A DNA stretch of 64,000 nt from Escherichia coli. GTDB lineage: Bacteria; Pseudomonadota; Gammaproteobacteria; Enterobacterales; Enterobacteriaceae. The stretch is from assembly GCF_017348835.2 (NCBI RefSeq), contig NZ_CP071375.1; one strand, written 5' to 3'. The position numbers were made by a program, and so were the translations under genes. Every line of letters starts with the position of its first letter. Within the stretch, counting starts at the first letter, position 1. Shown piece by piece: positions 38,825 through 40,509 of this stretch. Below the pieces are notes generated by a model that was given only the letters and a program-made list of their open reading frames with translations, was not told where the DNA came from and searched no databases.

Positions 38825-39142
38825 TTACAAATCGAAACTCATATTTAATAAAGGTGCGTGTTGCTGTGCACCATAGACATCATTGTCACCTACATTCCCG
38901 GAGATAATATCTCGTGGCATGACGATTTTTACTGCGTTAGAAGGATCAAACCAGACAATACGATGAATAAAGTCAGGTCCAACATGATATAAGCGCGCAA
39001 TCAGTTCTGGGGTTAATTGCCCTGATGATTTAACTCGCTCATAGTTTTCTTTGGTTTTAAATAAAATATCTAAAACCAGTTCGTAAGGTCCGGCATTTTT
39101 CGAACGAATGACTTGCGCCAGTGAGACAATTGACTGTTTCAT
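38825..39142 (-). CDS. Small conserved protein, C-terminal partner of the AtuA-like protein (DUF4387-like)
   Basis: 105 aa MKQSIVSLAQVIRSKNAGPYELVLDILFKTKENYERVKSSGQLTPELIARLYHVGPDFIHRIVWFDPSNAVKIVMPRDIISGNVGDNDVYGAQQHAPLLNMSFDL. Its start overlaps the upstream gene's stop (ATGA). Family assignment is from memory, not from a search. Confidence 0.55.
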   Translation of the reverse strand: MKQSIVSLAQVIRSKNAGPYELVLDILFKTKENYERVKSSGQLTPELIARLYHVGPDFIHRIVWFDPSNAVKIVMPRDIISGNVGDNDVYGAQQHAPLLNMSFDL

Positions 39143-40509
39143 GCCTGAACTCCTTCTGGCGTCACCTGTTCAATATGGAAATCAAAACGCAGAGCGTCGT
39201 TGGCTTCAATCAGGTGATATATGGAAAATTCGTATACCGGCCCGCCCTGGATATCAGAAGGGGAGAACGGGAACGCCAGATTGCCTGCGGTAGCGATGCG
39301 GTTTTCATAGCCGTAGTGCAGCATGGTAGAGCGCACCAGCGAGCAAACGCTATTGGCAATTTCCTGGGTCGGTGCAACTACATCAAGAACAATTCCCAGC
39401 TCATGCCCGGCAGTTTGCATCGGTTCATGGTCTCCCATCACCCCGTTTTTGCCGTACAGGTGGAAATTGATGCGAATGCTGTCATCGTCTAACGACAGGT
39501 TACGCGAAACGCTGGTTTTGACTTCATCGATGATTTTATCGATCCCGGCGATCATGATCGGGTCGCGCGTTCCGGCGATGGTCAGACAGCGGAAGCCCAC
39601 CCGTCGTGCACCTTCCAGTTTCAGGGCATACGGCGTTTCTTCATGCTTAGAACCGCTGACGTACACTTCGCCGTCATTGACCGCTTTAAATGTGCAGCCT
39701 TTCAGGTTCAACACGCCGCCAGGTCCTGGCAGGAAGTAGGGATCGGATTTCTCATACAGTGTGTGTGCAGCTGCTGACGTTTCGGTAAATTTACGCTTCG
39801 GATTAAATGTCTTCAGCGTAAAGCCGTTGTCATCAATGATGCCCATCGCACAGTCAGAGCCTGAGCCGGGCGTTGCAGCGATTGCCGCGCATTCAAGGAT
39901 TTTCCCACAATGCAGCGCCAGACCTTCATCAAAGCCTTGCATGATCGGGAGCGCTGCAAAGCAGGCCGGGTCGTAAGCGCGCCCGCCCAGCACCACTTGC
40001 GCGCCTTCTTTCAGCGCCCGCTGGAAGGGTTCGATGACCATTTGCGCAACGATATACGTACTTTCGTCAATCGCGTCGTGGGTTAACGGCGGGACAAAAT
40101 CCAGCGCCGTGATTTTGCCGTTATCCAGTGCCTGGTGGACGATGGCTTTGTCAACGTCTGCCGGGATCAACGCCATCGAGAACGAGAGGTGCTCTTCCTG
40201 GGCAATCTCATGAATTATTTCTCGGCACCACTCCAGGTGTGGTGCGGCACCAGAACCGCCGGCCGTTCCGATCACCACCGGTATATTATTTTGCACGCCT
40301 GCGGTGATCATATAGCGCAGATCGCGCTTGACTCCTGCGCGATCGGTAAATGGTTTGCCTGCCCCGAGGTAGTGGGGGCCTGGATCGGAAGAGCCTGCAT
40401 CAACGGCGATCAGATCGGGCGATTCTGCCATCGCTTTGCGGAAGCTCTCTTCCGGGAATCCATACCCGAGGATTGCCGTTGGCGATAAGACTTTAAAAGA
40501 ACGAGCCAT
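39139..40509 (-). CDS. AtuA-like protein of unknown function (DUF1446-like), embedded in the glutamate mutase operon
   Basis: 456 aa MARSFKVLSPTAILGYGFPEESFRKAMAESPDLIAVDAGSSDPGPHYLG... Starts 3 nt after the MAL stop. Family assignment is from memory of the AtuA/DUF1446 N-terminal region; no enzymatic motif recognised. Confidence 0.55.
   Translation of the reverse strand: MARSFKVLSPTAILGYGFPEESFRKAMAESPDLIAVDAGSSDPGPHYLGAGKPFTDRAGVKRDLRYMITAGVQNNIPVVIGTAGGSGAAPHLEWCREIIHEIAQEEHLSFSMALIPADVDKAIVHQALDNGKITALDFVPPLTHDAIDESTYIVAQMVIEPFQRALKEGAQVVLGGRAYDPACFAALPIMQGFDEGLALHCGKILECAAIAATPGSGSDCAMGIIDDNGFTLKTFNPKRKFTETSAAAHTLYEKSDPYFLPGPGGVLNLKGCTFKAVNDGEVYVSGSKHEETPYALKLEGARRVGFRCLTIAGTRDPIMIAGIDKIIDEVKTSVSRNLSLDDDSIRINFHLYGKNGVMGDHEPMQTAGHELGIVLDVVAPTQEIANSVCSLVRSTMLHYGYENRIATAGNLAFPFSPSDIQGGPVYEFSIYHLIEANDALRFDFHIEQVTPEGVQA

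Follow-up and report, generated by a model that had tools for sequence, protein, structure and literature searches.

CmlAB, a predicted citramalate lyase that works without CoA or an acyl-carrier protein, is encoded in the glutamate mutase gene cluster of Escherichia coli

Cleavage of citramalate between C2 and C3 needs a carbanion adjoining a carboxylate, and in the classical clostridial lyase (EC 4.1.3.22, CitDEF-type), known from Clostridium tetanomorphum and other glutamate fermenters, an acyl-carrier subunit binds that carboxylate as a thioester. One of the three subunits of the classical enzyme is an acyl-carrier protein bearing a CoA-like prosthetic group, and the accessory genes citC, citX and citG are required as well. 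C-C lyases that are independent of CoA and convert a hydroxy acid to a carboxylic acid and a 2-oxo acid make up the isocitrate lyase/2,3-dimethylmalate lyase superfamily. A further reference point is Pseudomonas AtuA, the founding member of the Pfam family PF07287, which it has in common with the gene pair described here; it sits in the atu cluster for acyclic terpene utilization and is said to be a fused AtuA + DUF4387 polypeptide. In Clostridia, the genes of the classical citramalate lyase adjoin glm and mal (PMC4682846). An alternative route, composed of a CoA transferase and a Ccl/CitE-like citramalyl-CoA lyase, likewise yields pyruvate and a C2 unit from (S)-citramalate, but depends on CoA, releases acetyl-CoA and employs proteins unrelated to those studied here, with its genes missing in most enterobacteria (PMC4682846). 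Isocitrate lyase and methylisocitrate lyase of E. coli do not cleave citramalate (PMC4682846). In their characterization of the mesaconase FumD from E. coli O157:H7, Kronen and Berg (2015) already remarked on a DUF1446 gene 3' of mal and called the fate of citramalate in this organism unclear (PMC4682846).

The closest described system is CmlAB, a two-subunit citramalate lyase represented by two PDB entries whose titles we retrieved via the fold search: 9ERQ, 'Citramalate lyase - AMPPNP - citramalate complex' (released 2025-10-22), and 9EVF, 'Citramalate lyase - ADP - pyruvate complex' (released 2025-10-08). The two chains co-crystallize, and citramalate or pyruvate is bound together with an adenine nucleotide. 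Besides AtuA and DUF4387 names, the depositors gave the chains the names 'Citramalate lyase, subunit A (cmlA)' and 'subunit B (cmlB)'. The structures probably derive from Raoultella planticola and the Berg laboratory; among the loci that we collected, the nearest genomic match to the PDB CmlA is a Klebsiella sp. locus (98%), which is consistent with a Raoultella origin. In a 2026 preprint, R. planticola cmlAB, a gift of the Berg laboratory, served for the CoA-independent cleavage of citramalate into pyruvate and acetate in vivo. The host expressing both subunits (cmlAB) was an acetyl-CoA-auxotrophic E. coli, whose growth became mesaconate-dependent and was gone after plasmid curing, with leucine labelling as confirmation; the cmlAB genes thus confer cleavage of mesaconate-derived citramalate in living cells. 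Evolved strains upregulated acetyl-CoA synthetase, and the products are named as pyruvate and acetate, with ATP unmentioned. Our literature search found no primary CmlAB publication, the only relevant items being the 2015 FumD paper and the 2026 preprint, and the primary description is perhaps either unpublished or outside the literature searched.

The window, the whole 64,000-nucleotide stretch of E. coli DNA that was analysed, carries a homologous gene pair in the following setting:

44606..45055 (RefSeq start), minus strand: glmS, B12-binding subunit S of glutamate mutase (NF002612, TIGR01501; RefSeq, identical strain)
43218..44606, minus strand: glmL, glutamate mutase accessory protein (PF13941; TIGR01319, NF040745)
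41754..43199, minus strand: glmE, glutamate (methylaspartate) mutase subunit E (PF06368, E 2e-214; TIGR01503)
40513..41754, minus strand: mal, methylaspartate ammonia-lyase, 413 aa (Pfam MAAL_N and MAAL_C; TIGR01502, E 1e-163)
39139..40509, minus strand: cmlA, predicted large citramalate lyase subunit, 456 aa, Pfam AtuA/DUF1446 (ORF and Pfam)
38825..39142, minus strand: cmlB, predicted small citramalate lyase subunit, 105 aa, DUF4387 (ORF, Pfam PF14330 and 9erq_B)
37384..38685 (RefSeq start 38664), minus strand: GltP/DctA-like dicarboxylate/amino acid:cation symporter (PF00375, E 3e-102)
35624..37276, minus strand: fumD, class I fumarase/mesaconase (NF011921, 1271 bits)
35012..35614, minus strand: cobO/btuR, cob(I)alamin adenosyltransferase, final operon gene (PF02572; TIGR00708)
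34982..35008, minus strand: terminator-like hairpin of 11 pairs, 9 of them G-C, followed by a T run, directly 3' of cobO
34073..34978 (RefSeq), plus strand: LysR-family regulator, convergent with the operon (Pfam HTH_1, LysR_substrate)

As the original prediction had it, two ORFs lie on the minus strand behind mal, and their tight spacing can be read directly in the sequence. The mal stop codon TAA occupies 40515-40513 and the cmlA ATG 40509-40507, leaving a gap of 3 nt; the cmlA stop codon TGA (39141-39139) and the cmlB ATG (39142-39140) share an ATGA overlap. Shine-Dalgarno-like motifs precede both starts, AAGGA at 40521-40517 within the 3' end of mal and GAAGGAG at 39156-39150 upstream of cmlB. 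Such tight coupling of mal, cmlA and cmlB should favour co-expression and a balanced supply of both subunits. The suggested split into an AtuA N-terminal part and a DUF4387 protein was borne out by a Pfam search, in which both proteins scored above the curated gathering thresholds: the 456-aa protein matched AtuA (PF07287) over residues 63-393 with 65.3 bits (cut-off 22.8, E 6e-18), and the 105-aa protein matched DUF4387 (PF14330) with 132.8 bits (cut-off 27, E 7.6e-39). An NCBIfam scan of both proteins matched zero models.

The genes follow the order glmS-glmL-glmE-mal-cmlA-cmlB-gltP-like-fumD-cobO, and the sole strong terminator-like site, at 35008-34982 on the 3' side of cobO, is the probable end of the operon. 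The pair would probably represent genes five and six of a nine-gene operon; the positions that had been predicted for it hold, whereas the transcription unit runs on into the GltP-like symporter, FumD and CobO. The glmS open frame reaches 45118, with NF002612 and TIGR01501 covering residues 22-168 of the 170-aa ORF, and the symporter scores under the cut-offs of the NCBIfam GltP and DctA models. A LysR-family gene adjoins the cluster in most enterobacterial loci as judged by synteny. The region is 100% identical to that of two pig E. coli strains. Among 5,426 complete E. coli genomes, 1,125 (about a fifth) carry the locus, at 1,126 places that are chromosomal in all but one; sucD and cydA flank it in strain PE164. 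In RefSeq, the two products are named 'acyclic terpene utilization AtuA family protein' and 'DUF4387 domain-containing protein'. Some database records misname the large subunit methylaspartate ammonia-lyase.

Searching the PDB sequences revealed that the large protein is identical to 9erq_A/9evf_A at 421 of 456 positions (92.3%, E 6e-292) and the small protein to 9erq_B/9evf_B at 88 of 104 (84.6%, E 1.3e-56). The window pair has the same lengths (456 and 105 aa) and the same two-subunit architecture as the solved CmlAB, and the Klebsiella sp. locus nearest to the PDB CmlA displays the glmS-glmL-glmE-mal-cmlA-cmlB-gltP-fumD-cobO order of the window; the host species differs, with the E. coli pair being known here from its genes. 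Judged by every defining feature that sequence can reveal, the pair is the CmlAB orthologue. We therefore read it as CmlAB, a heteromeric citramalate lyase that should operate without CoA or an acyl-carrier protein in the last step of the methylaspartate pathway, and assign this reading a probability of about 0.88. The functional name rests on the labels of the depositors, the ligands in the titles and one preprint. Given the 92% identity and the presence of D42, R177, D180, E253 and E299, the ligand-contact residues are likely kept in E. coli CmlAB. Among the roles originally proposed for the pair was a citramalate-processing step, which agrees with the name and ligands of the solved orthologue; the accompanying views that the family has no known biochemical function and that the role of the pair is undescribed are outdated, as 9ERQ and 9EVF carry the names CmlA and CmlB and the preprint uses the pair. 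The finding is accordingly known already, the function having been assigned and the structure solved elsewhere.

In the resulting pathway, GlmSE would convert glutamate to (2S,3S)-3-methylaspartate with the support of GlmL and CobO, MAL would release ammonia (NH3) to give mesaconate, FumD would turn mesaconate into (S)-citramalate, and CmlAB would cleave the latter to pyruvate and acetate. CmlAB would thereby share its net reaction and its pathway position with the classical citramalate lyase, but has two subunits instead of three, lacks a carrier protein, binds an adenine nucleotide and is unrelated in sequence and fold. No similarity to the CitD acyl carrier, CitE or CitF was detected in the pair, for which Pfam returned AtuA and DUF4387 only and NCBIfam nothing. 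CmlAB is thus a non-homologous replacement of the classical enzyme. It is equally distinct from the isocitrate lyase superfamily, which has the TIM-barrel PEP mutase/ICL fold and is nucleotide-free, and to which zero structural similarity was detected.

The genomic association of the pair extends well beyond E. coli. More than 6,555 proteins in a 90%-clustered collection match CmlA, and the matching 50% clusters number 2,364 at E<=1e-3 and 433 at E<=1e-30. Among the matches listed, most family members measure ~455 aa, so that they appear split like the window pair, and a minority of 608-621 aa probably represents a fused form, the extra length of these ~610-620-aa homologues presumably being the DUF4387 part at the C-terminus. 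The split form is not unusual among the representatives listed. To define the neighbourhood, one genome per species was scanned, the best 80 loci (57-92% identity to CmlA) were kept, and the proteins of the window operon were located in them by tblastn. A mal gene lies directly upstream on the same strand in 74 of the 77 loci having enough upstream sequence, and cmlB directly follows cmlA in all 78 loci having enough downstream sequence. The full glmS-glmL-glmE-mal-cmlA-cmlB set occurs in 62 of the 80 loci, 45 loci have the 4-nt cmlA/cmlB overlap, 25 have the 3-nt mal-cmlA gap, and a FumD-like class I fumarase is frequently found 3' of the pair. These loci belong to Enterobacterales, Aeromonas, Rhodocyclales, Telmatospirillum, Riflebacteria, Spirochaetes/Treponema, Acidobacteriota/Aminicenantes, Victivallaceae, Sedimentisphaerales, Myxococcota and Raymondbacteria. 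The anticipated co-occurrence of the pair with glmE and mal is strongly upheld by these 74 of 77 loci. In three loci, adjacent glm and mal genes are absent. One of them (L036) has an IS21-type IstB gene just upstream of cmlAB, suggesting that its context was probably rearranged; the other two (L080 and L081) are at the low end of similarity (57-60% identity) and have unrelated neighbours, and their proteins could be paralogues already or could act on citramalate of different origin.

We scored residue conservation over 103 family representatives sharing 33-61% identity with CmlA. G15, D42, G44, G87, G176, R177, D180, G192, E253, P263, G265, E299, G305 and G353 are invariant in this set, and H200, K203, E206, C207, D63, Y252, R307, E370 and H432 are nearly so. 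These residues are candidates for metal, nucleotide and carboxylate sites. Cysteines 95, 207, 220, 272 and 389 are conserved in the CmlA clade, of which C207 alone is retained family-wide (85-95%). An Fe-S cluster in CmlA was also considered and dropped as unsupported, since family-wide conservation among the five clade cysteines is limited to C207.

Because the orthologue was crystallized with AMPPNP plus citramalate and with ADP plus pyruvate, the E. coli enzyme is expected to bind an adenine nucleotide as well. The presence of an ATP analogue in the substrate complex and of ADP in the product complex led us to propose activation through an acyl phosphate. ATP would phosphorylate the C4 carboxylate of citramalate to yield the acyl phosphate citramalyl phosphate, which would make C2-C3 cleavage to pyruvate and acetyl phosphate feasible, and the phosphoryl group would then return to ADP, either on the enzyme or via acetate kinase. 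The net reaction would convert citramalate to pyruvate and acetate with zero ATP consumption, ATP filling the role that the thioester prosthetic group has in the classical CitDEF-type citramalate lyase. We advance ATP as a recoverable catalytic cofactor of CmlAB tentatively and at less than even odds. When compared to the amino-acid-kinase fold, the N-terminal domain of CmlA gave weak matches that were interleaved with equally weak ones to metallophosphoesterases and helicases. The depositors of 9ERQ and 9EVF may have established or excluded ATP catalysis already.

The same ligands can be accommodated by a CmlAB lyase in which the nucleotide is merely allosteric or structural and citramalate undergoes a metal-assisted retro-aldol cleavage via an aci-carboxylate, without phosphoryl transfer. 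Such an enzyme would act in the mode of isocitrate lyase or 2,3-dimethylmalate lyase, a superfamily that offers a precedent for CoA-independent hydroxy-acid cleavage. The resemblance of CmlA to the kinase fold is weak, the preprint describes direct cleavage to pyruvate and acetate, and the upregulation of acetyl-CoA synthetase in the evolved strains fits a free acetate product. However, an ATP analogue together with the substrate and ADP together with the product is the pairing expected from catalytic phosphoryl transfer, and fold searches did not link CmlAB to the isocitrate lyase/PEP mutase fold. We regard an allosteric or structural nucleotide as conceivable yet somewhat doubtful. That the citramalate lyase assays of 2015 were carried out without ATP (PMC4682846) is compatible with the acyl-phosphate proposal but proves little, because the glutamate-fermentation genes were apparently unexpressed in the cells tested.

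The remaining readings would deny the pair its place as the citramalate lyase. Predicted co-transcription with glmSLE and cobO, together with a bound nucleotide in the solved orthologue that is reminiscent of a reactivase, could point to an accessory factor for the B12-dependent glutamate mutase, acting in repair, reactivation or cofactor handling rather than as a pathway enzyme. The original prediction had named maintenance or repair of the B12 enzyme as a second option, but this is left without support and is contradicted by the ligand complexes, which contain citramalate and pyruvate. Moreover, the orthologue works in E. coli lacking glutamate mutase, the accessory role is already taken by GlmL, and cmlAB occurs apart from adjacent glm and mal genes in three loci, so that we consider an accessory function highly improbable. 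Close homologues named '3-methylaspartate ammonia-lyase' (P0002, P0059, P0072) would make the 456-aa protein a second enzyme of that kind, for which we see practically no chance: MAAL_N, MAAL_C and enolase-superfamily matches are missing from its Pfam and NCBIfam results, and the sole solved relative of its fold in the fold search is CmlA itself. Kronen and Berg, too, state that this annotation is present 'for unknown reason' (PMC4682846). The domain content refutes a second ammonia-lyase, the true MAL being encoded by the adjacent upstream gene. Finally, an orthologue of Pseudomonas AtuA serving acyclic terpene (citronellol/geraniol) catabolism, as the AtuA assignment by Pfam and the product name in RefSeq might suggest, deserves virtually no credence, as the Pfam match is modest (65 bits, residues 63-393 only), the context is glm/mal in 74 of 77 loci, the neighbourhood of the pair lacks a geranyl-CoA carboxylase, citronellyl-CoA or other acyl-CoA dehydrogenase, hydratase or any other atu-type gene, the orthologous loci showed no atu-type neighbours either, and the pair consists of two ORFs with an ATGA overlap instead of a single fused AtuA + DUF4387 polypeptide; being split and having no atu neighbours, it is not a functional orthologue of AtuA.

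As the citramalate lyase, CmlAB would close the enterobacterial methylaspartate pathway by supplying its long-missing last step, and it answers the question on the fate of citramalate raised in 2015, apparently from the same laboratory. It would explain how E. coli O157:H7 and about one fifth of the complete E. coli genomes could obtain pyruvate, acetate and ammonia from glutamate while lacking a CitDEF-type lyase, an explanation that extends to Citrobacter, Salmonella, Klebsiella/Raoultella, Yersinia, Morganella and many uncultured phyla. Annotation is where the finding is of practical use, given that RefSeq, Pfam and NCBIfam still list 'AtuA family protein' and 'DUF4387'. CmlAB has also entered synthetic pathway design, where it serves the CoA-independent conversion of C5-dicarboxylates to pyruvate and acetate (2026 preprint). 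If ATP indeed acts catalytically in CmlAB, this would constitute a C-C lyase mechanism without counterpart among known lyases. As D42, R177, D180, E253 and E299 are invariant in the 103 representatives, the same chemistry could apply to the whole DUF1446/AtuA family and, if so, could cover 2,364 clusters at 50% identity, including Pseudomonas AtuA as well as fungal and plant members. CmlAB also gives a first biochemical entry into this large, functionally uncharacterized family.

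The glutamate-degradation island, the chromosomal segment that carries the methylaspartate-pathway operon, is flanked as a whole by sucD and cydA on the E. coli chromosome (window 33406-47900; locus L001). Only 1,125 of the 5,426 complete E. coli genomes, roughly 21%, carry this island. In K-12, the position between sucD and cydA is presumably occupied by mngR-mngA-mngB. Within the island, the segment between glmS and cydA (window 45000-48000) has a GC content of 35-37%, as compared to about 52% for the glutamate operon, and it contains two open reading frames:

45614-46036, minus strand, ORF of 140 aa, 'hypothetical protein' in RefSeq
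46118-47062, minus strand, ORF of 314 aa, 'hypothetical protein' in RefSeq

Neither ORF had a match in Pfam, and the low-GC segment looks like a piece of the island that was acquired separately. At the adjoining end of the operon, RefSeq places the start of glmS at 45055, and the open frame of the gene (window 44606-45118) continues for a further 21 codons on the 5' side. Because the NCBIfam GlmS models align to this extended frame only from residue 22 onward, the real glmS product is likely the shorter, 149-aa form.

Further along the operon, cmlB and the gltP-like gene are separated by an intergenic region that contains a perfect 14-bp inverted repeat:

38710-38741, minus strand (transcript), inverted repeat with arms GTAGATGCCTGAAT and ATTCAGGCATCTAC and a loop of 4 nt

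The RNA fold of this repeat has a predicted energy of -25.2 kcal/mol (z -4.8), a value equalled by none of 200 shuffled sequences, and no clear U-tract lies 3' of the hairpin. The element could represent a partial terminator, or it could stabilize or process the mRNA such that the operon halves upstream and downstream of it are present at different levels; equally, the repeat could be a palindrome bound by a protein.

Across Pseudescherichia, Yersinia and Morganella (loci L017-L029), the core from glmS to gltP is constant in all loci and the operon tail differs by genus. cobO is absent from the operon in all three genera, fumD is relocated upstream on the opposite strand in the Yersinia loci, and it was not found within the flanking sequence examined for the Morganella loci.

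Several public records of close CmlA homologues (P0002, P0059 and P0072) bear the name '3-methylaspartate ammonia-lyase'. This label is an annotation error that has spread from record to record, and the misannotation was pointed out as early as 2015 (PMC4682846).

A few cmlAB-like pairs (57-69% identity) lack adjacent glm and mal genes, namely those of loci L036 (6672-7583), L080 and L081. One of them adjoins an IS21 IstB gene, and the other two lie next to genes for signalling proteins (GGDEF, hybrid histidine kinase) and for transporters. The encoded proteins may act on citramalate of other origin or on a different hydroxy acid.
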